IMG/VR virus record: IMGVR_UViG_2778261380_000011
Coordinates: 1-19,475 of that record
DNA length: 19,475 bases
Direction: 5' to 3' (one strand)
Source: a virus
Taxonomy: Duplodnaviria > Heunggongvirae > Uroviricota > Caudoviricetes
Translations under genes and position numbers: made by a program
In this document: piece after piece, positions 2,380 through 19,475 of the stretch
Layout of the letters: every line of letters starts with the position of its first letter
Position numbering within the stretch: position 1 is the stretch's first letter
The notes under the pieces: model-generated
Databases searched by the model: none
Seen by the model: the letters and a program-made list of their open reading frames with translations, nothing else
What the model was told of the DNA's origin: nothing

Positions 2380-2387
2380 GGTGAGAT

Positions 2388-2727: not shown

Positions 2728-2748
2728 GCATAAACAACAGAGGCTAAC

Positions 2749-3353: not shown

Positions 3354-3418
3354 TATGCATACCAATAACGCTTCACTTGAGGCGTTTTCGTTATGCAATC
3401 AAACAGAAGGAGCATCCT

Positions 3419-3589: not shown

Positions 3590-3693
3590 GTTTTACAGAT
3601 AACTGGTCAGACGAAGAATTCATTCGTCTGATGAACAAAATGCTCAATCAGCACAAAGAACAGGAGAAAGATGATGATTCTGACTCTGAATGA
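3586..3693 (+). CDS. possible small acidic protein (35 aa) in the kil position
   Basis: ATG overlaps cIII stop (ATGA at 3586-3589); not in ORF track (short); overlaps start of next gene in another frame. Confidence 0.3.
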   Translation: MSFTDNWSDEEFIRLMNKMLNQHKEQEKDDDSDSE

Positions 3694-3982
3694 TAAGCGT
3701 GAAATATCGCAAATAATCGCAAGTTTTACTGATGAAGATTACGAACGAATCAACAGTGAAGTTAATCGCCTCTGCAAACGTTGCGACCCAATAAGCGAAA
3801 TGCTTCGCTCATATAAACCAGATGAACACACTAAGGACGCTATCGACTGGCTGGAAGATTATGACTGTAACTATCAGGAAAAAGCCGCTGAATGGTTCTG
3901 GGATGCAATAACCGAAAGAGTTAAGGCTGAATATGCCTTCGCAATATTCAAACGCAGACATATTTATGGAGAAGCTGCATGA
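3671..3982 (+). CDS. hypothetical protein (103 aa)
   Basis: ORF with GGAG upstream; stop overlaps recT start (ATGA). Confidence 0.65.
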   Translation: MMILTLNDKREISQIIASFTDEDYERINSEVNRLCKRCDPISEMLRSYKPDEHTKDAIDWLEDYDCNYQEKAAEWFWDAITERVKAEYAFAIFKRRHIYGEAA

Positions 3983-4881
3983 GCAATATCGTTGAATTCG
4001 TTAAACAGCAAGAGCAGTTATTCTGCGGAGCATTGACTGAACAGACGGTGACATGGGCTAAGGAAAGCCAGTTTGCAATTCAGTATTTCCAGAAAAATGA
4101 TTACCTGGCTAAAACGGCACTGGCAAATCCAACCAGCGCACAGAACGCCATCATCAATGTTGCGGCGATCGGCATCACCTTAAACCCGGCCAGCAAACTT
4201 GCTTATCTAGTTCCGCGCGACGGCATGGTTTGCCTTGATATCAGCTATATGGGATTACTTCACCTTGCACAGTCGACAGGATCAATTAAGTGGGGGCAAT
4301 GCAAACTGGTGTACTCAAACGACACCTATGAATCAAACGGCCTTGATTCAGCACCAACCCACAAATACAACGCATTTGGTGAGCGAGGCTCTATTGTTGG
4401 TGGTTATTGTACGGTTAAAACAGCAGATGGTGACTACCTCACTGAAGAAATGAGTCTGGCAGAAATTAAAGCAGTGGAAGCAACGAGCAAGGCAAAGAAT
4501 GGACCGTGGAAAACATTCTGGGAAGAGATGGCACGTAAAACAATAGTTAAACGCGCCAGCAAATACTGGCCTAAAGCCCAGCGACTGGATAATGCCATTC
4601 ACCTGCTTAACGAAGATGAAGGTATGCATCAGGAACCAGTTATGCCGCACAAATCAGAGGAAGATATCCGCGAAGATGAACGGAAACGCCAGCAGGAAAT
4701 AATGGAAAAAGCACAACTTCTTTGTGATGAAATGGCTCAGGCAGAAAACATGGATGATTTGAAGCGATATTTTGCAGAAGCATATCGCCTGACATCTGGA
4801 ATGAAATTGCAGCAGAACGTACAAGCCATTTACATAGAATGCAAAGCGAAACTGGAGGTTGCCAGTGAGCAAACTATATGA
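3979..4881 (+). CDS. recT: RecT-family single-strand annealing recombinase
   Basis: Motif NGPWKTFWEEMARKTIVKRASKYWP resembles RecT NGPWVTHWEEMAKKTAIRRLFKYLP (from memory); 300 aa; coupled to flanking genes. Confidence 0.88.
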   Translation: MSNIVEFVKQQEQLFCGALTEQTVTWAKESQFAIQYFQKNDYLAKTALANPTSAQNAIINVAAIGITLNPASKLAYLVPRDGMVCLDISYMGLLHLAQSTGSIKWGQCKLVYSNDTYESNGLDSAPTHKYNAFGERGSIVGGYCTVKTADGDYLTEEMSLAEIKAVEATSKAKNGPWKTFWEEMARKTIVKRASKYWPKAQRLDNAIHLLNEDEGMHQEPVMPHKSEEDIREDERKRQQEIMEKAQLLCDEMAQAENMDDLKRYFAEAYRLTSGMKLQQNVQAIYIECKAKLEVASEQTI

Positions 4882-5347
4882 AATAGCCAATGAATACGCA
4901 AAATTGATGGATTCAGATTTAGAGCCAGAGATGATTGCTGACACAATAGAAGGCATGGAAGGAGAATTTACCGATAAAATAGAGCAACTTCTTGCCATTA
5001 TTAAAAATGAATCTGGTTATGCTGAACGCCTCAAGGACGAGGCAAAATCACTGAATGAACGAGCCGCAGTAATTCAAAATAAGATTGACAGCATTATGGC
5101 GTATATAGCGTCATCGCTTGAAATGGTTGGCAAGAAAAAGATTCGAGCGGGTATTCACCAGGTAACAATCCGCAAACCGTCAGAAACTGTAGAAATCATC
5201 GACTCAAGCGCCCTTCCTCCTGAATACGTTGAGTTTGAAACGACAATTAAAGCCGACAAACTGGCAATCAAACACCAACTAAAAGCAGGAATAAATATCC
5301 CCGGCGCTCAACTCAAAGTTGGGAAACCTTCACTTCTTATCAAATAA
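4865..5347 (+). CDS. hypothetical coiled-coil protein (about 160 aa) in RecT-partner position, possibly Siphovirus Gp157-like
   Basis: GTG 4865 preceded by GGAGG (4854-4858), overlaps recT stop; family assignment is tentative. Confidence 0.55.
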   Translation: MSKLYEIANEYAKLMDSDLEPEMIADTIEGMEGEFTDKIEQLLAIIKNESGYAERLKDEAKSLNERAAVIQNKIDSIMAYIASSLEMVGKKKIRAGIHQVTIRKPSETVEIIDSSALPPEYVEFETTIKADKLAIKHQLKAGINIPGAQLKVGKPSLLIK

Positions 5348-5358
5348 CGGTATCGCCT

Positions 5359-5673
5359 ATGAAAAAGACTCCATGGGAGAAATGGGAAGTCGATTTCTTA
5401 CGCGAAGTAGCGGCGACAATGCCAGTTGAAGTTATCGCAGAAAAACTGGAAAGGACTGAAAAAGCAGTAATGGCGAAAGCAACAAGGATTGGCGCTGACA
5501 TTGTTAGCCGACTTCGTGGAAGACGCTGGACAAGAGCCGAAGTATCACTTTTCGGTAAGTTCTCCGCAGAAGAAATAGCAATTGCAACCTGCCGCTCAAT
5601 TTATTCAGTAAGAGCTATGCGATACAAGCTAAAAAAACTCGATGAAGAAAGAGCAGGCATACGAATAAATTAA
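5359..5673 (+). CDS. hypothetical protein (104 aa)
   Basis: ORF in operon context; weak SD. Confidence 0.55.
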
Positions 5674-5689
5674 CAAAGAGGAATTTACC

Positions 5690-5854
5690 ATGAGAGGACT
5701 TGCATACAATCCCGGCATTCTTCCGGCAGAAATGATTATTCGCCAACGCGTAAAGCCAATGCCATCGAGAGAGGAATTGCTTAAGAGAAATTCTTTTCCA
5801 TCAGTGAATCAAAACAAATATCTGAATGCGATGTGGAGGAGTGGGAAGAAATGA
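5690..5854 (+). CDS. hypothetical small protein (54 aa)
   Basis: ATG 5690 preceded by AAGAGGA; stop overlaps next start (ATGA at 5851-5854); not in ORF track. Confidence 0.45.
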
Positions 5855-6360
5855 AACAAATGTCACTAATTGAGATGGATGGATTTCTGAAAGGTAAATG
5901 CATCCCACGAGATTTAAAGGTTAACGAAACAAACGCTGAATATCTTGTCCGTAAGTTCGGTGAACTTGAATCAAAACTGGAAACGGCGTTGCGGGAGTGT
6001 CGTTCTGCTGGAATCACGATTGATAACCTTGAGGCCAAGTGCGCGGCGCTGGCAGCGGAGAGTGTGGGGATGAAGAAGTTCTGCAAAGACGCTGCATTCG
6101 ATGCCGATTACGAAGCAGAGCTAGGTATGGAGCGTGGTGGATTCAGTGATGCGCTTAACGAAATCAAAACCCCAGCCACCGATGCTTTCCTGTCTGAAGT
6201 GCGGGCGCAGGGCGTGGAGATGCTGGCAAAAAATCATCAGAGTATCGTCAATGCACTTAAGGGAGATTCTTTATTTTCTGATGGTGAATACCTGCATGCA
6301 GCTATTGTTTCCGCAGCTGTATATTTCGCTGCAGAGCTTCGCAAAGGAGGCAACCAGTGA
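5851..6360 (+). CDS. hypothetical protein (169 aa)
   Basis: ATG 5851 with GGAGG upstream; ORF-track start 5833 is a GTG extension. Confidence 0.65.
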
Positions 6361-6611
6361 GTAATTCAGCACGACTACAGCTTGGTTTTTCACCGCTATC
6401 AAAAACTATCATGCTGGCAAAAATGCGCTATGTTGAAGGTGGACGTATGCGCGTTGGCAATGATCCAGGTCGTGATGTTACCAATGAGGCTGCTCAATTG
6501 GTGTGGCGACTGGTCATGGCTGAAGGTGGTGAGATCGCGTGGGAGCTGGATGATGGTTCTCGCATGGTGTTGAAGGCAGAAAAGCAGGAGGCAACCAGTG
6601 AGCAAGATTGA
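6357..6611 (+). CDS. hypothetical protein (84 aa) bounded by identical 17-mers
   Basis: GTG 6357 overlapping preceding stop, preceded by AGGAGG; ends within second copy of aggaggcaaccagtgag. Confidence 0.45.
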   Translation: MSNSARLQLGFSPLSKTIMLAKMRYVEGGRMRVGNDPGRDVTNEAAQLVWRLVMAEGGEIAWELDDGSRMVLKAEKQEATSEQD

Positions 6612-7584
6612 TTATCAGGCACTGCGTGCTAAGGCAGAAAAAGCAACGTGTGGCGAGTGGTCGCTCGAATATGGAGAGAGCCGATTTGATGGTGATGATG
6701 CGCTAATTCATCGTGAAGTTGCTGGATATATTCCCATTTGCAGAATTGAAGGAGCGCATCCAGAAAGCGGTTTCGATGAAGATTTCCAAATGGAACAGCA
6801 GGCCAATGCTGAATTCATCGCCGCAGCCAATCCGGCTACCGTACTGGCGCTGCTGGATGAACGGGAAAGAAACCAGCAATACATCAAACGCCGTGACCAG
6901 GAGAACGAGGAAATTGCGCTTACGGTAGGGAAGCTGCTAATCGAAAACGGCCGGCTTGTTGCCGATACGCTACGCCACTTAGCTGATAACGAAATCGACT
7001 CTGATTATTTTGCTATCACCTCAACTAATGAGAACGGTACTGAAATTGATCATGAGATGTCTATTACCGATTACGCACTGCAAGCTGCCGGAACTGTAGA
7101 CGAATTGGTTGCGGCGCTGGAAGCCGCAAAATCAAAACTCAACGAGCAGCGTGAATATTACGAGGGAGTAATCGCGGATGGGAGTAAGCGTATTGCTGAA
7201 CTGGAGAAAAGCGAAGAGCAACTCATCAATGAGCGTGACCATGCTGAGTCTGCTTTAGCTGATATGTACTTTGCAGCAACCGGTAACAGGCCGGAGTGGA
7301 GCAACTGGTTCGGCTTTTCAGATGCTGTCGATGCCGTGGTTGACAGAATAGCTGATTTAGAAGCCAAACAGCCATCGCCGGTAGTGCCGGATAATGCATC
7401 AGAGTCGCTTGCTTATGCTTACAAAGAGCTTACGCCTGAGATTATGCGCGGTCATATCGCTGTATTCGAGCGATATGGAATAGCCCCAAACGATAGCATT
7501 ACCACAATTCAGGCACTGCGAATCGCGCTGGATGGTATAGAGCGGAGCGACGCCATGCTTCAGGGAGGTAATAATGACCAATAA
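6598..7584 (+). CDS. Ead/Ea22-like family protein
   Basis: GTG 6598 after AGGAGG; N-terminus MSKIDYQALRAKAEKATCGEW resembles Ea22-like prophage proteins (from memory). Confidence 0.7.
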   Translation: MSKIDYQALRAKAEKATCGEWSLEYGESRFDGDDALIHREVAGYIPICRIEGAHPESGFDEDFQMEQQANAEFIAAANPATVLALLDERERNQQYIKRRDQENEEIALTVGKLLIENGRLVADTLRHLADNEIDSDYFAITSTNENGTEIDHEMSITDYALQAAGTVDELVAALEAAKSKLNEQREYYEGVIADGSKRIAELEKSEEQLINERDHAESALADMYFAATGNRPEWSNWFGFSDAVDAVVDRIADLEAKQPSPVVPDNASESLAYAYKELTPEIMRGHIAVFERYGIAPNDSITTIQALRIALDGIERSDAMLQGGNNDQ

Positions 7585-8188
7585 CAACCTAACAGACGAG
7601 CGCCTGAGCGTACTTATCCGTGTGGCTAGGGATTCTCTTGAATTGTATGAAATGGAGTTGCCTGTCATTGATGATGTAATGCTAGCGCTGGCCGAACTTC
7701 AGCAACGCCGCGCCGCCATGCTTCAGGGAGGCCAACCTGTAAACCAAACTTACAACTTGCCAGAATTAATCGAAGGCATGGAGGTTTCCATTGATGTAAG
7801 CACTTGTGATGCTGATTTAGGTAATCGCTATTTCGGCACCGTCACCGAGGCGTCAGAACTTGATACTGCCAAGAATGGTTACATCCTCCTGGTTCAGGAC
7901 GCAGAGCCAAACTTCGATGTAAATGGCAACTATCCGGTAACTCCGGATGGTTGGATAAGCTGTAGTGAGCGAATGCCAGAAATGGGAGAGCGACAATGCT
8001 ATGTGTTAGCAGCTGACTTTAAAAACAACTACCCACCAAACATCCCCAACACTCAGGTCGGCGTATATGGCGACTGGTTTAATGATGGCAATCCCACTTG
8101 GGATGACGGTGATGGCGAAGACCTGTATCTCAAAGAGGTAACCCACTGGATGCCTCTACCAGAACCGCCTCGATTAAAGGAGCTATAA
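7574..8188 (+). CDS. DUF551 domain protein with ea22-like N-terminal remnant
   Basis: C-terminal motif VTHWMPLPEPP typical of DUF551; N-terminal about 50 aa resemble an Ea22 C-terminal tail and end at a repeated 17-mer. Confidence 0.75.
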   Translation: MTNNNLTDERLSVLIRVARDSLELYEMELPVIDDVMLALAELQQRRAAMLQGGQPVNQTYNLPELIEGMEVSIDVSTCDADLGNRYFGTVTEASELDTAKNGYILLVQDAEPNFDVNGNYPVTPDGWISCSERMPEMGERQCYVLAADFKNNYPPNIPNTQVGVYGDWFNDGNPTWDDGDGEDLYLKEVTHWMPLPEPPRLKEL

Positions 8189-8302
8189 TAGTGAACTATT
8201 ATATCTATTTGTATTAAAAGAGTTTTTATAAAATAAATCTTCCAAAGCATGTAAAAACACTGTTAATCTTAACGTGTGTGAAACGTGAAGAGAGGTGTTG
8301 AA

Positions 8303-8584
8303 ATGAGCATTCATGGTTTGTGTGAAGATCAAGAGCAATGGGCTATGCAGACCCTTATGGGATCAGGAGTTCTTGCAAGGTGCAGAATCCATAACGATGT
8401 AATTTTAGACAGCGGAAATGATGCTTCTTCTGCTTATAAATTAGGAACTTACCTATATCAAAAAGATAATAGCTGCAACTTATTCAATACTCTTACTGAA
8501 GCCCGCGACGCAATAAAGGATGCATATGAATCGTATTGTGGGATTGATGATTGCCCACAATGCTCAAAATACATTGACGATTAA
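8303..8584 (+). CDS. hypothetical Cys-containing protein (93 aa)
   Basis: ATG 8303 with GAGGTG SD; AT-rich upstream region; followed by tandem hairpins 8605-8660. Confidence 0.55.
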   Translation: MSIHGLCEDQEQWAMQTLMGSGVLARCRIHNDVILDSGNDASSAYKLGTYLYQKDNSCNLFNTLTEARDAIKDAYESYCGIDDCPQCSKYIDD

Positions 8585-8672
8585 TAATATGAACAAGTAA
8601 CTATCCTCGCACTCGCGGGGATTTCTTTTATCTGAACTCGCTACGGCGGGTTTTGTTTTATGGAGATGATAA

Positions 8673-8840
8673 ATGCACTTCCGAGTCACAGGTGAATGGA
8701 ATGGAGAGCCATTCAACAGAGTTATCGAAGCAGAAAACATCAATGACTGCTATGACCACTGGATGCTATGGGCGCAGATAGCACATGCAGACGTAACCAA
8801 TATTCGAATTGAAGAACTGAAAGAACACCAAGCCGCCTGA
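8673..8840 (+). CDS. hypothetical small protein (55 aa)
   Basis: ATG 8673 preceded by GGAG; not in ORF track; followed by terminator. Confidence 0.45.
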   Translation: MHFRVTGEWNGEPFNRVIEAENINDCYDHWMLWAQIAHADVTNIRIEELKEHQAA

Positions 8841-8853
8841 TGGCGGTTTTTTA
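8832..8853 (+). terminator. intrinsic terminator
   Basis: ccgcc (8833-8837) / ggcgg (8842-8846) stem followed by tttttta. Confidence 0.6.
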
Positions 8854-8897
8854 TTACCTGATTTGCAGGTTCGATTCCCTATTCGGAGATAGCACTC

Positions 8898-9098
8898 ATG
8901 CAACACGAACTACAGCCTGATTCACTGGTTGATTTGAAATTCATCATGGCCGATACTGGCTTCGGTAAAACCTTCATCTATGACCGGATTAAGTCCGGCG
9001 ACCTGCCAAAAGCCAAAGTTATCCACGGGCGAGCAAGATGGTTATATCGTGACCATTGTGAATTCAAAAATAAGCTCTTAAGCCGCGCCAATGGGTAA
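8898..9098 (+). CDS. alpA: AlpA-family transcriptional regulator / excisionase-like protein
   Basis: 66 aa; LKFIMADTGFGKTFIYDRIKSGDLPKAKVIHGRARWLYRD fits AlpA/Xis winged-helix pattern (from memory); 250 bp upstream of integrase on the same strand. Confidence 0.8.
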   Translation: MQHELQPDSLVDLKFIMADTGFGKTFIYDRIKSGDLPKAKVIHGRARWLYRDHCEFKNKLLSRANG

Positions 9099-9346
9099 AA
9101 TAGCGGGTAAAATATTTCTCACATCTAAAAAATACCATTCCAATCAATCCCCTGCCGCTTCAAGTAGATGTCTGCAGGGGACACCATGAACACTTCTCAC
9201 TAAGTTCAATTAATTCCATAACTCACTGTTTTAACTGATATCATCTCCTTATACTCGTCCAGCAAAGTACCATTATTTCTAATGGAATCTATACATCTTT
9301 GCGTATAACATTGTGTATAACTGAGTTCGATCTTTTTTCTATACAC

Positions 9347-10522
9347 ATGCTGCTATCTGACATCCAAATAAAAAGAGCAAAACCGAAGGACAAACCCTAT
9401 ACGCTTAACGATGGTATGGGGCTATCACTCCTGATCGACACAGCGGGCAGTAAAGGCTGGCGTTTTCGCTATCGCTTTGCAGGTAAGCCTAAGATGATTT
9501 CCTTTGGCGTATATGGCGATGTGTCGTTGGCACAGGCACGTACCAAACGTGATGAAGCGCGTTCGATGTTAGCCAACGGGATAAACCCAAGTGAAGCCAG
9601 AAAAGCAGATAAGATTGCTTTGCAGTTCGCGCATGAGAACAGCTTTGAGTCTGTGGCCAGAGAATGGCACTCATCGAAAAAAGCCACCTGGTCAGAGGGT
9701 TATGCAAAAGAGGTTCTCAATTGTATGGAAAAGGATATTTTTCCTTTTATCGGCCAGCGCCCAATTGAGCAGATTGAACCATTAGAACTGCTAACCGTCC
9801 TGCAAAAAATAGAGAAAAGAGGTGCGCTAGAGCAAACCAGTAAGATCCGCCGCCGCTGTGGTGAAGTGCTTCGTTATGCTGTTGCCACTGGTAGAGCAAA
9901 GTATAATTTTGCACCCGATTTAGCTATCGCACTCAACAAACCTAAAACCCAACACTTCCCGTTCCTGACTGAAAGCGAGTTGCCCGAGTTCGTTAATGCT
10001 CTGGATAACTATCAGGGCAGTTTAGTTACCAAATACGCCACGCAGCTGTTGATGCTAACAGGCGTGCGAACAATTGAACTACGTGCAGCGGAATGGGCTG
10101 AGTTTGATTTAGATAATGCCTTATGGGAGATCCCCAAAGAACGGATGAAGAAACGCCGCCCCCATCTGGTTCCGTTATCAACTCAGGCGATCAATATCCT
10201 GAAAAAGCTGCAAGAAATAACAGGGAATTACAGCCTCGTTTTCCCTGGCCGGAATGACGTCAGTAAACCAATGAGCGAAGCCAGCATCAACAAAGTGATA
10301 AAACTACTGGGTTATCACGGTCGGTTAACGGGTCACGGTTTCAGGCATACCATGAGCACCATCTTGCATGAGCATGGGTTTGAAAGTGCCTGGATTGAAA
10401 TGCAGCTTGCGCATGTTGATAAGAACTCTATTCGAGGTACTTACAATCATGCGCAATATATTAAAGATCGACAAGTAATGATGGAATGGTACGCTAGCTT
10501 ATTAAATACGACCTGCTATTAA
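9347..10522 (+). CDS. int: tyrosine recombinase, P4-type integrase
   Basis: N-terminus MLLSDIQIKRAKPKDKPYTLNDGMGLSLLIDTAGSKGWRFRYRF typical of P4-family arm-binding domain; C-terminal HGFRHT (HxxR) and catalytic Tyr region RGTYNHAQY; ORF-track start 9299 is an extension. Confidence 0.92.
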   Translation: MLLSDIQIKRAKPKDKPYTLNDGMGLSLLIDTAGSKGWRFRYRFAGKPKMISFGVYGDVSLAQARTKRDEARSMLANGINPSEARKADKIALQFAHENSFESVAREWHSSKKATWSEGYAKEVLNCMEKDIFPFIGQRPIEQIEPLELLTVLQKIEKRGALEQTSKIRRRCGEVLRYAVATGRAKYNFAPDLAIALNKPKTQHFPFLTESELPEFVNALDNYQGSLVTKYATQLLMLTGVRTIELRAAEWAEFDLDNALWEIPKERMKKRRPHLVPLSTQAINILKKLQEITGNYSLVFPGRNDVSKPMSEASINKVIKLLGYHGRLTGHGFRHTMSTILHEHGFESAWIEMQLAHVDKNSIRGTYNHAQYIKDRQVMMEWYASLLNTTCY

Positions 10523-11452
10523 ATCCAGCATGAAACAAATATGGTGAGTAATTTGATACTGTTTGTTTTTTGGCAACCCAGGGAAATGCCTTACAGTTGG
10601 TTGACTATTGTAATAATAATAGTTAAGACCAATGTTGCTGCCAAACTGGGTTGGATGTTGGGGAACAAGATTTGTAATTTGATCTGAAACATCTAAAAAT
10701 TTTGCAGTAACATTTGAACTTCCTCGTTGCGTGTTGCTTGATACAAAATGACGAATCCAAACTGTATTCGCTTGTAAATTCTTGAACACCAAATGTGCGG
10801 CAACAGCAGAAGGTTGACCACCTCCAAGATCTAGTACCTGGCCAGTAATTGTATAATCGCCAAATCCTAAGTAATTTTGTCCCACGAATTGATGTGCGTG
10901 CGTGAAAAGTTCCGGCCCATTATAATCAGCATTTTTTGCTAACTTTCTAAAGTTATCGCTAATAATAATTAACTTCGACAAAGGAAGAAGAGCGCACTGA
11001 TTAGGAAGCATTTTATTATTTAAAACAACATGATAACTAATCAATTGATTTGTCGCCAACAACTGAATATCAGAGTTGGATAATGATGGATTATCATATA
11101 GAAGTGCAACTCGTCTATTTAAGTTAGCATTCAACCAATTATTAATATCATTAATCGTTGTATTGGGCTGAATAAGATATCCAGAGATGATATTATTTTT
11201 ATTTGTTAATACACTTGATAAATTTTGATTTAAAGTTAAGACGTTATTGTGTGAAGAAAAATCTTCCTGATAAGGATTAAGGATAACAATTATGTCAGAA
11301 TTCCAAACATTTAAACATGTTAATAAATTTCTCGTATTGACGTTAATTGGTTCTAAAATTGGTAGCAGACCATTTAGGCTAACTCCCTTCGCAACGAGGT
11401 CCCTAAGGCATAATAACTCTGTACTTCTCGCATACAAATATGGGCTATACAT
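10502..11452 (-). CDS. hypothetical protein (316 aa), second gene of AT-rich cargo operon
   Basis: ATG 11452 preceded by AGGAG; 21-nt gap after upstream gene; no recognisable domain; 3' end overlaps integrase 3' end by 21 nt (convergent). Confidence 0.8.
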   Translation of the reverse strand: MYSPYLYARSTELLCLRDLVAKGVSLNGLLPILEPINVNTRNLLTCLNVWNSDIIVILNPYQEDFSSHNNVLTLNQNLSSVLTNKNNIISGYLIQPNTTINDINNWLNANLNRRVALLYDNPSLSNSDIQLLATNQLISYHVVLNNKMLPNQCALLPLSKLIIISDNFRKLAKNADYNGPELFTHAHQFVGQNYLGFGDYTITGQVLDLGGGQPSAVAAHLVFKNLQANTVWIRHFVSSNTQRGSSNVTAKFLDVSDQITNLVPQHPTQFGSNIGLNYYYYNSQPTVRHFPGLPKNKQYQITHHICFMLDLIAGRI

Positions 11453-11473
11453 AACTTACAACTCCTGAGGATA

Positions 11474-12355
11474 TCAACAAATTTTAATTTTTACATCCAT
11501 CAAATTCATGATGAATTCTTTTTGCTTTCTTGATAATGGTGTTGCATAACCTAAAACACGTAAACATGCTGGAAGAGAATAAATATAATCCAAAAAAACT
11601 TTATCGTTACATCTTTTTTTCATAGCAGAGATAAAGTATTTATTTGCTATGTTTAATGGCATCTGCATGAATATCTCTTTACAATATTCATAAACCAATC
11701 CGTTAGGCATATTTATTTTAGTTGAAGTGTAATCTTCTATTATAGCTAAGAACTCTTCCTTTCTAAGAACTGAAAACAAGCTGTCACTTTTAATATAATC
11801 AATATTTGAATCTGCCTCCTTAATGACACTCAATTGATCTTTTTTATTCAAAACCATAACTCCCACTCTGGGGAGATTTAAAGCACAATATTTACTTGCA
11901 TACTCTGGATGTGTAACTATATACACTTTATCAAAAACATCCAAATAATCAGGGGCTTGAGTAATCAACCTTTTTGGTGAATCATACTCTGTCTTAATCT
12001 CGTAAGCTGTAGACGTACCATTAAACACCGCAACATCCACTATAGAGTTTTTAATTGGTAACTCTATGGACGACGAACTTGTTTTTGGGCTGTGCTTACC
12101 GAATATTATTTTATTGACAAGTGCTGTCTTATAAACATATTCATTTCTATAATTCAGACGCAAAAAATCATATAATGATGTAAATAAATCCCTTAGTGAA
12201 ATCTCATGTTCATTATTATCATTGTTTGAAAACAGTGTTTCATAGCAGTAAGAATCAAAACTCCCAAATAAATCCGAAATATCCTTACCTTTTGCTAAGG
12301 ATGAAAAAATGGGGCGACGGAAAAATTTAGCATATTCCTTTTTATTATGACTCAT
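11474..12355 (-). CDS. hypothetical protein (293 aa) with PD-(D/E)xK nuclease-like motif, first gene of AT-rich cargo operon
   Basis: Motif SIVD(107)VAVF-x9-YE(119)IK(121) (nt 11993-12037); strongly AT-rich coding sequence. Confidence 0.8.
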   Translation of the reverse strand: MSHNKKEYAKFFRRPIFSSLAKGKDISDLFGSFDSYCYETLFSNNDNNEHEISLRDLFTSLYDFLRLNYRNEYVYKTALVNKIIFGKHSPKTSSSSIELPIKNSIVDVAVFNGTSTAYEIKTEYDSPKRLITQAPDYLDVFDKVYIVTHPEYASKYCALNLPRVGVMVLNKKDQLSVIKEADSNIDYIKSDSLFSVLRKEEFLAIIEDYTSTKINMPNGLVYEYCKEIFMQMPLNIANKYFISAMKKRCNDKVFLDYIYSLPACLRVLGYATPLSRKQKEFIMNLMDVKIKIC

Positions 12356-13589: not shown

Positions 13590-16277
13590 TCACTCAGGTT
13601 CAGCGCTTCCCAGTACCTGTGTATTGAACTGGTACACACGTTTAAGCCCTATTTCTGGCAGGCGAATGCTGTTTTGCGTCCGGCCATCTTCACCGGGTTT
13701 CAGCCAGCCCGCGTCCACACACAACCTGGCCACCTTACGCGAGTCAAATCCCTTACAGATCTCCTTCCAGCCTGACGGGAGAACGTAGAACGTCACAACC
13801 GGCTCTGTCACGTTGTCTCCTTTATCGACTTTTCTGAATCCCATCATTGAAACAGGCCGGTTCCTGTCGTCATTCCAGTCAGCAAACCGACTGAACTGAT
13901 TACGCGTCATGAAGTCCCGAACCTGTTCAAGTGCCGCTTTATCTTCCTGATTAGCTGTATGGCCCCGGTCAGCCATCCATGCAGCCAGACAGCTTTGAGC
14001 GGCACGAAAGGCCTCTCCCTCCGGCCATCCTGTGATGCCCGCTTTTGTGGCCAGCTCCCCGGCCATCGCAACCAGAGCAAAACGGGTAACAGCCCGGCCA
14101 ACCTGATTCCCGGCATTTTCCGGCGTCAGCCTTCGGGTATACTCTTTCAATAAGGCTTTCGCCTGACTGGTCAGTTCCGGCAGATCAGCGGTCAGGCAAT
14201 ACAGCCAGTCGCGGAATGGTGCACCATGATAATGCGCTACGTGCTGCTCAAGATGCTCAGCCAGGGTTTTCCCGCTACTGAAGCCATGAAGTTCTTCAAA
14301 CACGCCATACTTGCCCGAATCGCTTGGGATCTGGATCATTCTGACCTCAACCCCGGCATACGTACGTTCCCCGGCGCTTGCCGCATGCTCTACCAGTGAC
14401 AGTTCCCCGGTAGACAGAAACAACAGATTCCAGCGGTTGGTTTCCCTTACCGAACCATCTGTTCTGGCTCTGGCTTTGCCCTGCCCGTTAGCCAGCATAT
14501 AAGCGATATTTCCCGCCTCCCTGCCGTCAACCTCCCGGATTTCATCCAGCATCAGCGTGGCATCATTGCGGCGGCTCGCCGTTCCTTCTAAGGCATTCCC
14601 CGTCGCCCGCCACGTATGCCAGAAATCTGTTCCACCACATACTGATGCAGCCACTTTCATCGTCGTGGTTTTACCGTCTGTGGATTCCCCTTTGAGGTGA
14701 TAACCTCCACCGCCGATACCAACCAGTTTCAGAAGGGGGGCAGCAAATGCCAGACTCACCGCAAAGGCAAGACGGGCATTCTTTATGCAATAACGGCCTA
14801 TATTTTCACGCCAGCCCTCTGATGTGCCGCTGACACGAAAATCACGCCCCTGCACACTCGATGTTTGTAAGATGACTGACTGGGCTTCGCGCCCTATCAC
14901 TTCATCCTGGAGAACGTAAACCCCGCCGTGCCAGCCAGTTTTATTCACACAGGTTACTTTTCTGTCCGGTTTACACAGCGAGATATATTCCATCAGGAAT
15001 GCTCTGGCCATGCCGTTAATGTTGATGTAAGAAAGCCCGTTAACCAGCAGAACGCGGCGCAGTTCTTCCCCGCTACCGCCCAGCATCTCCATCGGCATTG
15101 CCCATTTACGGCTGTTTCCGTTGGTATCTTCCCATTCCAGCAAACGCCCGTAATTACTTCCATCAGCATCACTGGTGATTGCCGTCACCCGCAACGGACT
15201 GCAAATTTTGATATTACGTATCTCTGTATCACCATCAGACTTATTAACCAGCTTGTCGTACCACAAATATTCTTTTGTCAGCCGGAACCCTTCTGGTAAA
15301 CGGGTCTGCCCTTTGCCATGCAGCGTCATTTCTTCACGAAAGGCATCTCTCGCCCGTTCTTTCCCCACTTCCTGCCGATAATCATCCCAGTCAGCCTTAT
15401 GGCGTACCGGAGGGAGCGTTACCCAGCCATCCACCGCTTTGGCGGCTTTCTCTGCCTGAATACGCCCGGTGTTTTCTTTGCCGTCAGCCAGATCATTATC
15501 TCCGGCCAGAATGATCCGGGTTTCCGGCCAGCGTTTTCGGATCTGCTCCGTCACCTTCAGTAAATTGGTGGCAGCGACAGCCGCCACGATCCATCCTTCA
15601 GTCAGCAGACTGACGGTAAGCGCCGTGGCAAAACCCTCAGTGATAATCACCTGTTCAGGTGTTTCAGCGGGTATATCGGTCAGGGCAATGAATGCGCCAG
15701 ACAGCTGGCTACCGGGCAGCAGACTTTTATCCCCGTCAGGATTGATAAGCTGGCCACCAGTAATATTCCCGGAAATATCCGTCAAAGGCAGCAGTAATGA
15801 ACCGGTGGAAAATGTTATTCCGGCCAGATTCAAAGGCTGTGACAGCAAGGGAAGTGAATACCCGTGTAAGCTCTTATTTGTCAGATAGACCGGCTCACCA
15901 TTGCAGGACTGCTGTCTGAGTCTGGTATATCGCTCCGCGCCCGCTTCTTTTCCTGCGGCCTTTTTCCTGGCTGGCAATGCGGGCTTCTCCTGTATTTCTG
16001 GTAATGCAAGCGCCTCAGATACCATCCCGGCGACTTCTTTTATCTTTCTTCCTGTCACCAGACGAACCAGATCAAGACCATCGCCATGACCGCACTGATT
16101 ACAAAACCACGTCCCTCGCCCCGCTTTATCGTCCAGTCGAAAACGATCTTTTCCACCACAGGCAGGGCAAGCCCCATGATGTCCTGCGGACGGTACTTTA
16201 ATACCTAATGCTGACAGGATATAAGGCCAGCGCCCAATTGCAGCTCCGGAAATCGTGGATACAGACGGTGTTTTCAC
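13590..16277 (-). CDS. P4 alpha-type primase-helicase (895 aa)
   Basis: N-terminal zinc-binding primase motif CPACGG...WFCNQCGHGDG; Walker A GESTDGKTT; GTG start 16277 preceded by AGGAGG and overlapping upstream stop (GTGA). Confidence 0.9.
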   Translation of the reverse strand: MKTPSVSTISGAAIGRWPYILSALGIKVPSAGHHGACPACGGKDRFRLDDKAGRGTWFCNQCGHGDGLDLVRLVTGRKIKEVAGMVSEALALPEIQEKPALPARKKAAGKEAGAERYTRLRQQSCNGEPVYLTNKSLHGYSLPLLSQPLNLAGITFSTGSLLLPLTDISGNITGGQLINPDGDKSLLPGSQLSGAFIALTDIPAETPEQVIITEGFATALTVSLLTEGWIVAAVAATNLLKVTEQIRKRWPETRIILAGDNDLADGKENTGRIQAEKAAKAVDGWVTLPPVRHKADWDDYRQEVGKERARDAFREEMTLHGKGQTRLPEGFRLTKEYLWYDKLVNKSDGDTEIRNIKICSPLRVTAITSDADGSNYGRLLEWEDTNGNSRKWAMPMEMLGGSGEELRRVLLVNGLSYININGMARAFLMEYISLCKPDRKVTCVNKTGWHGGVYVLQDEVIGREAQSVILQTSSVQGRDFRVSGTSEGWRENIGRYCIKNARLAFAVSLAFAAPLLKLVGIGGGGYHLKGESTDGKTTTMKVAASVCGGTDFWHTWRATGNALEGTASRRNDATLMLDEIREVDGREAGNIAYMLANGQGKARARTDGSVRETNRWNLLFLSTGELSLVEHAASAGERTYAGVEVRMIQIPSDSGKYGVFEELHGFSSGKTLAEHLEQHVAHYHGAPFRDWLYCLTADLPELTSQAKALLKEYTRRLTPENAGNQVGRAVTRFALVAMAGELATKAGITGWPEGEAFRAAQSCLAAWMADRGHTANQEDKAALEQVRDFMTRNQFSRFADWNDDRNRPVSMMGFRKVDKGDNVTEPVVTFYVLPSGWKEICKGFDSRKVARLCVDAGWLKPGEDGRTQNSIRLPEIGLKRVYQFNTQVLGSAEPE

Positions 16278-16684
16278 AGCAGCACCTCCTGACCTTCCGG
16301 CTTCACAAATTCAAAACCTTCGGGTAGTTCGCCATCAGGTGCTCCGAAAATAATATCCCGGTAAACCTCACGCATCTCTGTGACACCAAAAACTGACAGG
16401 CGAATATTTTCTGACATAAAGCCTGGTTTAAGCATTTTTTCCAGTTTCTCTGCGGCCAGTATGCAACCAGCATCAGCCCCAAACTCATTCACCCACGGCA
16501 TTTCAATATGGTAAATAATATTACTCACCACTTTTTCGTGGGAGAGTTCTATTCGTTCGCCATCTTCAATATAAACAGGTTCATTATGAACACGCACCAT
16601 TAAGGAAATGAATGCATCAGCAATGTAGTAGCGTAAGACTGCTGTTCGTAAAGCATGCGCCTTTAAATTTTGATTATTATTCAT
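16274..16684 (-). CDS. hypothetical protein (136 aa), coupled upstream of primase
   Basis: ATG 16684 preceded by AGGGAG; stop overlaps primase start. Confidence 0.7.
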   Translation of the reverse strand: MNNNQNLKAHALRTAVLRYYIADAFISLMVRVHNEPVYIEDGERIELSHEKVVSNIIYHIEMPWVNEFGADAGCILAAEKLEKMLKPGFMSENIRLSVFGVTEMREVYRDIIFGAPDGELPEGFEFVKPEGQEVLL

Positions 16685-16913
16685 CGCGCATCACTCCCTT
16701 AATTGTGCTGGTTTCCTTAACAACGCCATCCAGTTGTTCGGCAATACAGGCCACTAAAGCCGCAGCGCCTTCCGCTGAAACAGTTCTCGCTCCATTCACT
16801 GTGGGCACGGACAAGACCTCTGCAAGAAACTCACTGGCCAGTGCCGCCCGTAACAGACGACTCTCCCCCTGTTCACTCAATATGCAGCCTTGCTTAAAAT
16901 TCATGGATTTCAT
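16677..16913 (-). CDS. hypothetical protein (78 aa)
   Basis: ATG 16913 preceded by GGAGGTG; overlaps neighbours at both ends. Confidence 0.6.
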   Translation of the reverse strand: MKSMNFKQGCILSEQGESRLLRAALASEFLAEVLSVPTVNGARTVSAEGAAALVACIAEQLDGVVKETSTIKGVMRDE

Positions 16914-17113
16914 GCAACCACCTCCCCGGCTCTTTTCACAGGGATACGGGCAGCAAAGCTCAGGATAAATTCAGTGGCAAGTTTAAGGCGTGCAGCATGC
17001 TCGCATTCTGCGATTACACGCACAGGGCGTGGACGGGCATCACGGTCTGTACGGCGGACAGCCAGAAAGACAAAGGTAAATTCAGGGTGAGATAAAGCAG
17101 GGACTGTAGCCAT
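16910..17113 (-). CDS. hypothetical protein (67 aa), first gene of replication operon
   Basis: ATG 17113 preceded by AAGGAGG (rc of 17121-17127); ORF-track 196-aa version is an unsupported upstream extension across the leader. Confidence 0.6.
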   Translation of the reverse strand: MATVPALSHPEFTFVFLAVRRTDRDARPRPVRVIAECEHAARLKLATEFILSFAARIPVKRAGEVVA

Positions 17114-17123
17114 AATGGCAACC

Positions 17124-17390
17124 TCCTTCAGATAGCGGGTAACGCTACCACCGGAGTTCCTACGCTCATGGGTGGTAGCCCAGACGGGGGTAGGAATACC
17201 GGCTCTGAAGGATACCGGCCAGCCCGAAAGCTGCCCCGCCTGGACTACCATAATTCTGATGATGTGGCGTAAAAAATAAAAAAATACAATCAGCCACCAC
17301 ACCATAAATTTTAGGTGAGTCAAAGCTGCGACACAAAAAAACACGCCTAGCGCGTGTAGTATCGCCTTCAGATAACACGGGTTCCTACGC
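17124..17390 (-). promoter_or_regulatory. structured leader with duplicated element (gttcctacgc at 17156-17165 and 17381-17390, each after ccttcagata) and a complementary gtaggaa motif (17190-17196) between them; P4 CI-RNA-like immunity architecture
   Basis: Direct repeat plus internal complement; inverted repeat gctaccacc/ggtggtagc (17135-17179) encloses the downstream copy just before the RBS. Confidence 0.45.
17334..17357 (-). terminator. intrinsic terminator/attenuator within the leader
   Basis: On minus strand: stem acacgc/gcgtgt (17341-17357) followed by U7 (rc of 17334-17340). Confidence 0.6.
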
Positions 17391-17419
17391 CCGGCTGCCG
17401 ATTTTGCGGCAACCTTTAA

Positions 17420-17449
17420 ACTATATCCCGCGCATTCCTGGTGAGGCAA
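17420..17449 (-). promoter_or_regulatory. sigma70-like promoter for the leader/replication operon (-35 TTGCCT rc of 17444-17449, 18-nt spacer, -10 TATAGT rc of 17420-17425)
   Basis: Hexamers read on minus strand upstream of the repeated leader element. Confidence 0.5.
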
Positions 17450-17552
17450 GAAATTTATAACCGAAAACTGATCATTGCCTGGATTAATTAACGCTGGCAT
17501 GCTTAAGCCTCTGCTTAAAAATAGTTCTTCATTTTTCCTGATGCTGTAAACG

Positions 17553-17587: not shown

Positions 17588-18592
17588 TCAATCCGCAAAC
17601 GTCAGGGTGCACTCATCAACAGCCGCGTACAGTTCAGGTTCACCGAGTGCATAACCTTCATTGCGCAGGTAGGAATGCACGTATTCACTGCTTTCATCAT
17701 CAAACTCAGCACGAAACCAGCGTGTTATCGCCTGAGTGTAAATATGCAGATTATCCAGCGTCGTTACTGCCAGACGCTTACCCGGCATAAACGGGGGAAT
17801 AAACGCAAAGCGGCCAGCAACAGAACTTGTAGCCATCTGTGCCGCATTCACATCAGACGGGCGGTCTGCGGCATTAAATAACTTCAGGCGTTGATGTGCT
17901 GCCAGCTCTGCCCCAACCAGTACAACCAGACGAGGATCTTCACGAAACTGCTCAGCAATAAGCTCTGTAATCAGATGGTTGGCCAGAGCATCAATATTTT
18001 TCCAGGTGCCAGTCTCTCCCAGAGTGACAGGCTCAGAGATGATTTGCTTTCCGTTCCCGTAGGCTTTCGCCAGTGCATGCCAGCCAATATTGACATCCTC
18101 GCCTTTTTTATTGATTTCCGGGTTTGTAGTATTTGCAATCGACACACCGTTGAAACCGACCCGCAGCATGTCCAGCGCATATGCCTGGGCAAAAAAGCTC
18201 TCAACCGTTTTCTCAAACTCATCCGGCACGCCGGTATGGTAAATATGAGACATATCGGAATAGCTGATCCGGGCGCAGGTATCCGTCTCTGTCAGAAAGA
18301 ACTCCGTACCATTGATTGCCATTTTTTTGTGGAAACGGCCACCATCCACACGTCCGGTATACAGTTCACTGGCACCAATATTGACGGCATTACCTGACAC
18401 GGCGTTAACATCACGTAGGGTAATATTTTTAATAAGCCACCCGGATTCCAGAATTGAGGTACGCAGTATATTTTCAGTAGGTTCGCTTAATGCAAAGCGT
18501 CTGTTTGATTCTTCCTGATAGTTAGTGCCAGTGACGAATTTATTATGATAACGACGTGCTGCGTCCGGCCTTTCAGTTTTGAAGGCATACAT
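17588..18592 (-). CDS. P2-family major capsid protein (gpN-like) homolog
   Basis: Segments LDMLRVGFNGVS, DALANHLITELIAEQFREDPRLVVLVGAELAA and C-terminal half align with P2 gpN as I remember it; ATG 18592 with AAGGTG SD. Confidence 0.7.
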   Translation of the reverse strand: MYAFKTERPDAARRYHNKFVTGTNYQEESNRRFALSEPTENILRTSILESGWLIKNITLRDVNAVSGNAVNIGASELYTGRVDGGRFHKKMAINGTEFFLTETDTCARISYSDMSHIYHTGVPDEFEKTVESFFAQAYALDMLRVGFNGVSIANTTNPEINKKGEDVNIGWHALAKAYGNGKQIISEPVTLGETGTWKNIDALANHLITELIAEQFREDPRLVVLVGAELAAHQRLKLFNAADRPSDVNAAQMATSSVAGRFAFIPPFMPGKRLAVTTLDNLHIYTQAITRWFRAEFDDESSEYVHSYLRNEGYALGEPELYAAVDECTLTFAD

Positions 18593-18614: not shown

Positions 18615-19475
18615 TTAAGAAAAGATTTTATTTTTGTACTCAGTAACCAGATTGTATTTCATTACATGCTCAACATAATCCCGGTCACTTACGACTGAAC
18701 GTAATACATAATTATCTGCTCGATAGTACTCCCTGTAAGCCATAGCTCTTGCCATTCCACCGTTATTTAATACATAACGATCAGTTGGAACGCTACAACG
18801 ACTAATAATTTCACTCACGGAATCAGATAAAGACTTGAGTGCATCAGTAATAAATTTAATATCACGGACAACGTCACTGTCATTAAATACAGAAATAAAA
18901 TCAGCAGGGATCTGGCCGGATTGAGGAAATATATTCAGTAAACGCTTATCGATTCCCTTCCCAATGTAGTTTCCTTCATCGGCCAGTACTCCCGGCAAAA
19001 GCTTGATCGTGCTCAATCGACTATGTTGTTCATTCAACCGGGAAACAGCCAGATGGTAATACCGTTCAGCATCCGCTCGTTCAGCATGCCCCATTTTATT
19101 CGTTTTGGCTTCAGCAATGCTACTGACGCCGTTTTTTGAGAATGTGCTTTTCCATGCAACTTCCGCATTTGTCACTTCACGCTGCCGGAAAGATAACTCT
19201 TCCTCTTCCTGACGACACAACTGGGCATAACGGCTCAGGAGCAGGTTGATCTCATTCGCCACAGTTTCCGTATCAGGTACTGTTAACCCCGTAAGTGAAT
19301 ACAGCTTTTCACCTTTAGCTCGCAGCTTATTCAGTGAATATATTTCAATAATACGCACAATACAGGCCGTGTCGCTATGAGTCTCTTTAAATGATCTTAC
19401 TTTGTAACTATCTAACACCGACACATGTTCGTTCTTAATTGATGCCAATTTCTTCTTAAAAACATTGTCAACCAT
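18615..19475 (-). CDS. hypothetical protein (286 aa), AT-rich
   Basis: ORF begins with ATG exactly at window end (rc of 19473-19475) and ends 22 nt before capsid gene; no family recognised. Confidence 0.65.
   Translation of the reverse strand: MVDNVFKKKLASIKNEHVSVLDSYKVRSFKETHSDTACIVRIIEIYSLNKLRAKGEKLYSLTGLTVPDTETVANEINLLLSRYAQLCRQEEEELSFRQREVTNAEVAWKSTFSKNGVSSIAEAKTNKMGHAERADAERYYHLAVSRLNEQHSRLSTIKLLPGVLADEGNYIGKGIDKRLLNIFPQSGQIPADFISVFNDSDVVRDIKFITDALKSLSDSVSEIISRCSVPTDRYVLNNGGMARAMAYREYYRADNYVLRSVVSDRDYVEHVMKYNLVTEYKNKIFS

Follow-up and report, generated by a model that had tools for sequence, protein, structure and literature searches.

The window, that is, the whole stretch of 19,475 nt of viral DNA analysed here, belongs to an island that is carried by about 446 complete E. 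coli genomes and sits at tRNA-Arg. Its gene content comprises an integrase adjoining the tRNA-Arg core, an alpha-like primase and an ogr/Delta-like gene, and an HTH gene is annotated just past the window end. A tRNA scan of the window detected none, tRNA-Arg being represented by a 15-nt att core only. We focused on a leader that is read on the minus strand and has a P2-family capsid gene as its upstream neighbour. The following features were located in the leader and downstream of it:

17420-17449, minus strand: predicted sigma-70-type promoter, counterpart of P4 PLE (-35 TTGCCT at 17449-17444, spacer of 18, -10 TATAGT at 17425-17420)
17336-17413, minus strand: seqA / IsrK-like leader RNA, with helices supported by covariation
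17413-17394, minus strand: seqA hairpin 1, supported by covariation
17393-17378, minus strand: seqA hairpin 2, showing the target b1 in its loop, supported by covariation
17334-17357, minus strand: intrinsic terminator, counterpart of P4 t1 (stem ACACGC/GCGUGU at 17357-17341, then U7)
17168-17255, minus strand: CI / C4 antisense RNA gene, with a 17-bp outer stem and two internal hairpins
17144-17179, minus strand: hairpin presenting the target b2 (nine outer pairs, an inner GAG/CUC stem and an 8-nt loop)
16910-17113, minus strand: Icd/Kil-like ORF (67 aa, ATG at 17113) with which the genes downstream of the leader begin
16910-17500, minus strand: long in-frame ORF of 196 aa, Eta/Ash-like, spanning promoter, seqA, t1, CI and seqC (RefSeq CDS 'Icd-like protein')
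13590-16913, minus strand: downstream operon of two small ORFs and a primase/helicase, which would be CI-controlled in a P4-type reading
16913-16677 and 16684-16274, minus strand: the two small ORFs, of 78 and 136 aa
16277-13590, minus strand: primase/helicase of 895 aa (Pfam Zn_Ribbon_Prim, Toprim_3 and DUF927; PHROG 1139, DNA primase)

Predicted promoter, leader RNAs and downstream genes

A preliminary description of this DNA had predicted a promoter at 17420-17449, and the TTGCCT-18-TATAGT arrangement was recovered at these positions by a consensus scan. Its -10 lines up with a -10 that the P4 record shows immediately ahead of the P4 immunity region and that we take to be that of PLE. In 128 relatives, there is little or no variation at T1, A2, A4 and T6 of this hexamer, and transcription likely starts near 17413. 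From there, seqA hairpin 1 is followed by hairpin 2, the target a1 and the terminator t1, whose hairpin is the 3' hairpin of the isrK model; a stop at t1 would yield an sRNA of about 80 nt. The terminator had also been recognised at first reading, and a terminator scan confirmed both its stem and the end of its T-run at 17334. It is kept in relatives, with one pair swapped between GC and CG (72 versus 53 sequences). The role of t1 in P4 was reportedly described by Briani et al. 2000.

Covariance-model searches, which had been suggested as a check, assigned the leader to known RNA families. The C4/CI antisense RNA model (Rfam RF01695, clan CL00128) matched 17255-17168 over its full length with 81.1 bits (E = 4e-16; cut-off 45), and the isrK model (RF01394), which corresponds to P4 seqA plus terminator t1, scored 68.9 bits against a cut-off of 50. 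A third model, c4-a1b1 (RF03163), found at 17426-17374, remained just below its cut-off (43.8 versus 46.7 bits), as did P4 itself (44.1 bits). All three models also hit P4, in corresponding relative positions, and the CI of P4 scored 74.9 bits with C4. IsrK has been equated with P4 seqA in the literature (PMC3632133, PMC4825925).

When folded alone, the CI RNA adopted the structure of the model (-47.7 kcal/mol), and a tRNA-like acceptor stem followed by ACCACC(CA) is visible in its sequence. The outer stem was 100% paired in relatives, with seven pairs changed on both sides, and the mature CI RNA is predicted to extend over about 80 nt, from ~17250 to 17171. Downstream of it, the second copy of a 10-mer repeat had been placed in the loop of a hairpin at 17135-17179. 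This hairpin is real and does hold the repeat; its supported limits are 17179-17144, so that the 3' end is a few bases shorter than described. Across relatives, 99.7% of its cells are paired and 7 of its 12 pairs are changed on both sides, and the internal helices of seqA, t1 and CI were each supported in the same way. Because residues 17179-17173 serve both the b2 hairpin, as its 5' strand, and the CI outer stem, as its 3' strand, the two structures are mutually exclusive in the unprocessed transcript. This conserved alternative hairpin may decide between CI processing and target presentation.

The first ORF after the leader aligns with the corresponding P4 ORF and matched NCBIfam NF033153 (phage_ICD_like) with 68.1 bits against a cut-off of 25. 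It is nested within the longer Eta/Ash frame. The latter shares 49% identity with the corresponding P4 frame and, in 182 relatives, is open for a median of 122 codons versus 44 and 9 in the other frames. The match to Pfam Phage_ASH (111.7 bits) covers aa 26-141 of the 196-aa ORF, that is, the RNA region. The two small ORFs match only PHROGs of unknown function, and no similarity to P4 epsilon or ORF106 was detectable in them. The primase/helicase shares 38% identity with P4 alpha over its N-terminal 317 aa, and the helicase part is not homologous. We found no match to Ant, Bro or KilA domains or to any antirepressor family in the downstream ORFs. The P4 homology described below, the RNA fold, the terminator and the nature of the downstream genes were all computed directly.

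As a side observation, RefSeq draws the 196-aa CDS across two RNA genes and the terminator, with no RNA gene annotated there.

Two recognition modules in the CI RNA and its targets

The window contains exactly two copies of the 10-mer repeat of the preliminary description, GCGTAGGAAC, one at 17390-17381 and the other at 17165-17156, and the internal complement UUCCUAC is present at 17196-17190 as claimed. In contrast, the statement that the complementarity amounts to only 7 nt had to be revised, since it actually involves 7 nt plus 8-9 nt in two separate modules. Module b, with two copies of GUAGGAA and the complement UUCCUAC, had been found, whereas the longer triple of module a, which consists of two copies of UCUGAAGG(A) and the complement (U)CCUUCAGA in a CI loop, had been missed. 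The six sites are, in the order of transcription:

17382-17388, minus strand: b1 target GUAGGAA, complementary to b' and lying inside the first copy of the 10-mer (GCGUAGGAAC, 17390-17381)
17365-17372, minus strand: a1 target UCUGAAGG, the complement of a' in the CI loop
17204-17212, minus strand: a' recognition sequence (U)CCUUCAGA, located in the second hairpin loop of CI (in P4, CCUGUGAA)
17190-17196, minus strand: b' recognition sequence UUCCUAC, in a single-stranded joint of CI (in P4, UUCUCAC)
17163-17157, minus strand: b2 target GUAGGAA, in the 8-nt loop of the hairpin 17179-17144
17132-17124, minus strand: a2 target UCUGAAGGA, overlapping the SD GGAGG (17126-17122) of the Icd/Kil-like ORF

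The upstream target seqA (b1 + a1) can thus form 7 + 8 nt of Watson-Crick pairs with seqB (a' + b'), and the downstream target seqC (b2 + a2) 7 + 9 nt, the latter overlapping the ribosome-binding site (RBS) of the first ORF. We likewise computed directly the two pairings, their covariation, the SD overlap and the divergence of the recognition sequences from those of P4. In the structure predicted for the entire leader, seqA and seqB are paired with each other in cis.

To follow these sites in other elements, relatives were gathered by the conserved scaffold alone; this gave 209 unique sequences. The covariation analysis used 126 distinct relatives, and as the relatives were chosen for an intact CI scaffold, the frequency of module decay is not readable from this sample. 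The cognate b complement was found upstream in 207 and downstream in 206 of the 209 relatives, and non-cognate sequences matched in 5% and 1.7% of the respective tests. Among the 126 distinct relatives, pairing with the upstream target was kept in 99.4% of cells, with both sides changed at 14 of 15 positions and a covariation score of 0.80, compared with 0.22 for shuffled and 0.08-0.15 for slid sites. For the downstream target, pairing was kept in 94.9% of cells (14 of 16 positions changed on both sides), with a score of 0.70 versus 0.22. When the helices were considered separately, b'-b1 was paired in 99.9% and a'-a1 in 99.0% across relatives, with both sides changed at 6/7 and 8/8 pairs, respectively; the corresponding values were 99.8% for b'-b2 and 91.1% for a'-a2, the latter with both sides changed at 8/9 pairs. 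The flanks therefore change together with the internal complement, in agreement with the earlier proposal that an internal segment pairs with two flanking copies, and the repeats, whose loss in related elements had been named as a point against that proposal, are kept.

Comparison with P4

The P4 immunity region was the best phage DNA match of the leader (70.9% identity over 396 nt, 56% of the query). In both elements, the predicted promoter is followed by the seqA hairpins, an intrinsic terminator, the CI RNA, seqC and SD-ATG, in this order. P4 likewise has an Icd/Kil-like ORF within an Eta/Ash-like frame, an alpha-related primase downstream, and a tRNA-linked island with integrase and an ogr/Delta-like gene. 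The resemblance to P4 CI-RNA immunity noticed at the outset is thus borne out by DNA homology, by the same Rfam models, by covarying sites and by the same kind of operon. We consider it highly probable that a P4-like satellite prophage in E. coli has its immunity module at 17449-17113 on the minus strand, homologous to the PLE-seqA-t1-cI-seqC-kil region of P4. It would be an RNA-based immunity switch of a known kind with recognition sequences of its own, and as such adds little to the biology of gene regulation.

Alignment with P4 seqA, seqB, seqC and CI, a comparison that the preliminary description had called for, could be extended throughout the leader, and all six sites differ in a compensatory manner. 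Module b reads GUGAGAA/UUCUCAC in P4 versus GUAGGAA/UUCCUAC here, and module a reads UUCACAGG/CCUGUGAA versus UCUGAAGG/CCUUCAGA. Predicted cross-pairing with P4 is weak, at -6 to -13 kcal/mol compared with -21 to -24 kcal/mol for the cognate pairs. With recognition sequences unlike those of P4 and such weak predicted cross-pairing, the element is therefore probably heteroimmune to P4.

Other differences concern the surroundings of the module. The spacer between t1 and CI is ~30 nt longer in P4, and P4 has orf88 as the upstream neighbour where a P2-family capsid gene is found here. In addition, of the core set of P4-like satellites (integrase, alpA, alpha, delta, sid, psu and epsilon), no recognisable homologs of sid, psu and epsilon were found in the island, and the helicase half of the primase/helicase is of the DUF927 type. 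Because these three genes were not recognised and the helicase domain is unlike that of P4 alpha, the lifestyle of the element may differ from that of P4.

Proposed mechanism and alternative explanations

In P4, the CI RNA pairs with seqA and seqC and terminates transcription, and IsrK and C4 have been described as structural homologs of seqA and CI, respectively (PMC4825925, PMC3632133, PMC10111431). PMC4825925 and PMC10111431 summarise superinfection immunity in P4 as well as CI-dependent premature termination, in which t1, t4 and the Rho-dependent timm take part. On this model, the leader would be transcribed from a presumably constitutive promoter at 17449-17420, and a CI/C4 RNA of ~80 nt with a tRNA-like acceptor stem (~17250-17171) would be cut from it, presumably by RNase P and 3' trimming as in P4-type modules. 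In the CI RNA, a hairpin loop would expose a' and a single-stranded joint b', and both could pair, in trans or in cis, with the upstream b1-a1 of seqA, favouring termination at the immediately downstream t1 and resulting in CI autoregulation. The same two segments would also pair with the downstream b2-a2 of seqC, where a2 covers the SD of the Icd/Kil-like ORF. The leader RNA, left untranslated, would then end prematurely, the primase/helicase operon would stay silent and the satellite lysogenic, and incoming satellites that share the a/b sequences would be repressed as well. CI RNA processing, termination as the output and the immunity phenotype are here taken over from work on P4 and P1 and would apply by analogy.

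Regulation by the short seqA RNA could have either sign, because activation and not repression has been reported for the homolog of this RNA pair in Salmonella Gifsy-1 (PMC4825925). In the isrK-STnc1160-orf45-anrP locus of that prophage, an IsrK-like RNA with a Rho-independent terminator likewise precedes both a C4-like RNA that is processed and a small ORF, to which anrP is translationally coupled, and the short RNA activates translation of the antirepressor operon (orf45-anrP) from a long transcript (PMC4825925). By the same logic, the short RNA 17413-17334 could be the main regulator and switch downstream expression on, either by acting in trans on a long read-through transcript or by titrating CI, in both cases opening the RBS of the first ORF. 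The isrK score above cut-off agrees with such a role; moreover, seqA bears the same a/b sequences as seqC and could compete for CI, and the leader fold predicted in cis brings seqA onto seqB. However, P4 and not Gifsy-1 is closest both by sequence and by gene context, and these point to the P4 repression circuit, in which the net outcome is CI repression; an anrP-like antirepressor gene is also absent downstream. We therefore regard an activator as the main regulator as unlikely; as a modulating layer, it would be compatible with the CI-based explanation rather than replace it.

Much less probable is a module of the P1/P7 immI type (c4-icd-ant), in which C4 RNA controls icd-ant and the antirepressor output inactivates a primary protein repressor. 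The immI region shares with our locus the RNA family (Rfam C4, clan CL00128), the fold, the logic of pairing a'/b' to a1/b1 and a2/b2, an Icd-like first ORF and an RBS covered by the antisense RNA, and the DNA search also matched C4 regions of PY54, phiKO2 and Stx phages, some of them adjoining ant genes. In contrast to immI, where the output is an antirepressor, the leader described here precedes a replication operon, with two small ORFs of unknown function and a primase/helicase in place of Ant, Bro or KilA proteins. At the DNA level, P1-type loci are similar in the RNA core only, and nucleotide homology over the whole leader was seen with P4 alone (56% of the query versus 24-37% for the others). 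The linear plasmid prophages N15, phiKO2 and PY54 also combine a C4-like RNA with an Icd-like gene, and their C4 core and a1b1 are 80-83% identical to ours over ~200 nt; this corresponds to 28-29% of the query, the promoter, spacer and downstream genes not being common to both. As contexts for this module, P1-type immI and Gifsy-1 anrP were both ruled out by the absence of an antirepressor gene downstream.

We also considered whether the region is a protein-coding gene only, namely the 196-aa 'Icd-like'/Ash CDS, with the repeats reflecting protein or codon constraint. The RefSeq CDS, the Phage_ASH match and a frame that is open in most relatives speak for coding, as does the report that P4 Eta is translated, from an upstream late promoter (PMC10111431). 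This explanation nevertheless predicts neither reverse-complement covariation at six sites with 95-99% of the pairs kept, nor covarying stems, nor covariance-model scores far above cut-off, and we find it hardly credible. Coding as the sole cause is ruled out by the covariation, and the open frame is still real and conserved. Coding and RNA functions have been reported to coexist in P4.

Finally, chance was assessed with 5000 dinucleotide-preserving shuffles of 17124-17449. A 7-nt triple, with a sequence followed by its reverse complement and by a second copy, arose in 76 of the 5000 shuffles and an 8-nt triple in 5, and two independent triples in none (0/5000). The 10-mer repeat taken alone was not significant over the whole window, as 33 of 200 shuffles of the latter gave at least two matches at one mismatch. 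Thus, although the 10-mer or a single 7-nt triple (1.5% of region shuffles) can come about at random, the chance of such a co-occurrence for two independent collinear triples that also covary in 126 distinct relatives is negligible, and a chance repeat was ruled out by the shuffle test and the covariation.

Diversity of the recognition sequences

Between them, the 209 unique relatives combine about 30 a-types with 9 b-types, giving about 67 combinations. Even where the rest of the leader is 97-99% identical, relatives can differ simultaneously at all three a sites, all three b sites or both sets. In one near-identical pair, 18 of the 61 site columns differ, compared with 3 of the 291 columns outside the sites (p = 2e-12). 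The a and b sites are interleaved over ~260 nt, so that a single crossover cannot swap one module.

We tentatively suggest, as one possibility that we would not favour at present, that modules a and b form a combinatorial address code that is rewritten by P4-like satellites under diversifying selection. If real and not yet described, this would represent a concerted triple-site specificity switch that creates new immunity groups, which could arise by patchy gene conversion or by selection via intermediates. For the element in the window, recognition sequences unlike those of P4 predict a separate immunity group, and the survey of relatives suggests that there are many such groups. A census of P4-like satellites (PMC8628076), which we searched for any treatment of RNA immunity, does not mention it.

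At the level of annotation, the RNA genes of this module are missing from RefSeq in an island present in so many complete E. coli genomes. For engineering, the system offers a compact set of natural orthogonal antisense/target pairs that could be used as regulators.

Identity and layout of the leader

We inspected positions 17700-16900 of the minus strand directly for the elements of a preliminary description, which had likened this leader to the CI RNA immunity region of satellite phage P4. There are exactly two copies of the repeat GCGTAGGAAC in the window (17390-17381 and 17165-17156), and the promoter-like site, the intrinsic terminator and the internal complement lie where they had been placed. 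The 7-nt complementarity proposed there held as one recognition module (module b), but not as the sole one, since module a had been overlooked. Each module consists of two flanking target copies and a complement within the CI RNA: GUAGGAA and UUCCUAC for module b, UCUGAAGG and CCUUCAGA for module a.

Elements of the leader
17449-17420, minus: promoter-like site TTGCCT-18-TATAGT (consensus and alignment support only)
17413-17394, minus: hairpin 1
17388-17382, minus: b1, in the loop of hairpin 2
17372-17365, minus: a1
17357-17334, minus: intrinsic-terminator-like hairpin (t1), stem 17357-17341, T-run to 17334
about 17250-17171, minus: CI RNA
17212-17204, minus: a', in the CI loop
17196-17190, minus: b' UUCCUAC, in the single-stranded joint of CI
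17163-17157, minus: b2, in the loop of hairpin 17179-17144
17132-17124, minus: a2, overlapping the Shine-Dalgarno (SD) sequence
17126-17122, minus: GGAGG (SD), followed by ATG at 17113

The fold of the CI RNA leaves a' and b' (seqB) exposed, and the terminator stands right after the upstream targets b1 and a1 (seqA). Targets run in the order b-a and their complements in the order a'-b', the arrangement needed for the two modules to pair in antiparallel fashion simultaneously. When 17124-17449 was shuffled 5000 times with dinucleotides preserved, a 7-nt triple (a word, its reverse complement and the word again) arose in 76 shuffles and an 8-nt triple in 5, while two independent triples arose in 0 of the 5000.

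When the whole window was scanned against Rfam, two models alone reached their gathering scores, both within the leader: C4 antisense RNA (RF01695) at 17255-17168 (81.1 bits, cut-off 45) and isrK (RF01394) at 17413-17336 (68.9 bits, cut-off 50). Under permissive settings c4-a1b1 (RF03163) also matched, at 17426-17374, its score of 43.8 bits falling short of the cut-off of 46.7. The best match among phage records in a sensitive DNA search was P4 itself (70.9% identity over 396 nt), at the locus called 'cI' or 'ash' in old records, where the same three models occur in the same order with similar scores, c4-a1b1 again being sub-threshold (44.1 bits). In the pairwise alignment, long identical blocks are broken at exactly six short places, each differing compensatorily: P4 has GUGAGAA flanking and UUCUCAC in CI for module b, and UUCACAGG flanking and CCUGUGAA in CI for module a. 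IsrK and C4 have been described as structural homologs of P4 seqA and CI RNA (PMC3632133), and the P4 CI RNA, a product of the untranslated leader, pairs with seqA upstream and seqC downstream to cause premature termination (PMC4825925). All sequence-level features that define the P4-type CI/C4 immunity family, so far as they were open to testing, are present here. The leader is a new member of this family, as had been proposed from the sequence alone, and carries its own recognition sequences within a family that is already known and that a routine Rfam scan detects.

Covariation among relatives

We surveyed one genome per species and a viral contig set with a pattern in which the conserved CI scaffold alone was fixed and the loop and joint were free, so that target sites played no part in locus selection. 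The 233 loci recovered, mostly from Enterobacterales, gave 209 unique regions with full flanks; because loci were picked for an intact scaffold, the frequency of module decay cannot be read from this sample. About 30 a cores and 9 b cores occurred in about 67 combinations. The preliminary description had made its reading depend on conservation of the repeats in relatives, and a complement to the region's own b' was present upstream in 207/209 regions and downstream in 206/209, against 5% and 1.7% of tests with non-cognate b' sequences. With the register held at 8 nt, complements of a' were present in 148/209 regions upstream and 145/209 downstream, compared with 0.5% for non-cognate sequences. 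When the register was left free, complements in module a were most often 8 nt long on the upstream side and 9 nt long on the downstream side, and those in module b 7 nt long. Pairs were counted in an alignment of 128 sequences.

Pairing in the 128-sequence alignment (cells paired; pairs with both-side changes; covariation)
CI with upstream targets: 99.4%; 14/15; 0.80 vs 0.22 shuffled and 0.08-0.15 slid
CI with downstream targets: 94.9%; 14/16; 0.70 vs 0.22 shuffled
Internal helices of seqA, t1 and CI: 99.4%; 15/44; 0.19 vs 0.13 shuffled
Hairpin 17179-17144 (second repeat): 99.7%; 7/12; 0.33 vs 0.19 shuffled

In relatives sharing 97-99% identity over the rest of the leader, all three a sites (12/33 columns) and/or all three b sites (6/28) differ, as in the aligned loci L148:4783-5159 versus L142:7373-7749, or P4 (L001) versus L127 and L148. 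In one near-identical pair, 18/61 columns differed inside the recognition sites versus 3/291 outside them (Fisher p = 1.7e-12). Types of a combine freely with types of b, and as the sites are interleaved, one crossover cannot exchange a single module.

Controlled genes and predicted mechanism

The leader is followed on its own strand by an Icd-like ORF (NF033153, 68 bits), then by two small ORFs without a known function and a primase/helicase of 895 aa. The latter shares 38% identity with P4 alpha across the first 317 residues, and its helicase part is of the DUF927 type. Judged by this gene content, the controlled genes are of the P4 kind (replication), unlike the antirepressors of P1 or Gifsy-1. 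The P1-type immI (c4-icd-ant) and the Gifsy-1 anrP locus were both rejected because an antirepressor gene is absent.

By analogy with work on P4 and P1 (PMC4825925, PMC10111431), RNase P would excise the CI RNA from the leader. Pairing of CI with seqA would increase termination at t1 and so autoregulate CI, a role of t1 that was reportedly described by Briani et al. (2000). Pairing of a2 occludes the SD, and CI binding to seqC (b2 and a2) would block translation of the Kil/Icd ORF, leaving untranslated RNA to be terminated; the replication operon would be kept off and incoming homoimmune satellites repressed. A short RNA ending at t1 might add a further layer as a decoy or activator, roles reported for Gifsy-1 IsrK (PMC4825925).

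Predicted duplex energies of the CI RNA with its own targets were -21.3 (seqA) and -23.6 (seqC) kcal/mol, compared with -6.1 and -10.8 kcal/mol for this CI with P4 targets and -9.8 and -13.0 kcal/mol for P4 CI with the targets in the window. Given these weak cross-duplexes, the element is predicted to be heteroimmune to P4.

Alternative folds and a long reading frame

Bases 17179-17173 (minus) serve both the 3' strand of the CI outer stem (with 17244-17250) and the 5' strand of the b2-presenting hairpin (17144-17179). At two alignment columns, G-U wobble absorbs changes in the CI stem, and the b2 hairpin truly compensates (CG:95/UA:31, AU:91/GC:33), which suggests that in the unprocessed transcript the two structures are mutually exclusive and both selected. 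Folded as a whole (17105-17413, minus), the leader has a minimum free energy of -125.7 kcal/mol (z = -5.0 vs shuffles); in this structure seqA pairs in cis with seqB and the mature CI hairpin 2 does not form, so the nascent transcript may regulate itself before processing.

RefSeq annotates 16910-17500 (minus) as a 196-aa 'host cell division inhibitor Icd-like protein', spanning the promoter, seqA, t1, CI RNA and seqC, and has no RNA gene there. Pfam Phage_ASH (111.7 bits) covers aa 26-141, exactly the translated RNA region, and in 182 relatives the frame stays open over a median of 122 codons (44 and 9 for the other two frames). In P4, a late promoter lying upstream is reported to drive translation of the Eta protein (PMC10111431), and the open frame would fit a similar dual-coding, Eta-like protein here.

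The island and its neighbourhood

From 9172 on, the sequence of the window matches an E. coli chromosome with full identity; there, this DNA forms an island of about 10.5 kb between tRNA-Arg (adjoining yfdC) and dsdC; at least 80% of a 6.5-kb query was present in 446 complete E. coli genomes. The island also encodes an integrase, an ogr/Delta-like zinc-finger gene and a P2-family major capsid gene, and no recognisable homolog of sid, psu or epsilon was found in it. The capsid gene (17588-18592, minus; PF05125, 226 bits), followed by a terminator-like hairpin at about 17570-17548, and a 286-aa protein without a family match (18615-19475, minus) lie directly upstream of the leader, where P4 instead has orf88. 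The stretch between the integrase and the ogr/Delta-like gene, where P4-like satellites are described as having a hotspot of anti-phage systems (PMC9122126), holds a sce7725/sce7726 family gene pair (10502-12355, minus; NCBIfam 242 and 176 bits).

The first 9.2 kb of the window (1-9171) represent a lambdoid prophage, of which this is the early-left arm.

Genes of the lambdoid arm
970-1671: S24/HTH repressor
1921-2379: N protein
3979-4881: RecT
4859-5347: Gp157
6598-7584: Ea22
7574-8188: DUF551
8898-9098: excisionase-like gene

The window contains no complete tRNA. Identity with the satellite-only genome starts at 9172, which corresponds to the last 15 nt of tRNA-Arg (the att core, 9172-9186), and since the lambdoid arm abuts the satellite there, the two elements, lambdoid prophage and P4-like satellite, stand in tandem at a shared att core.
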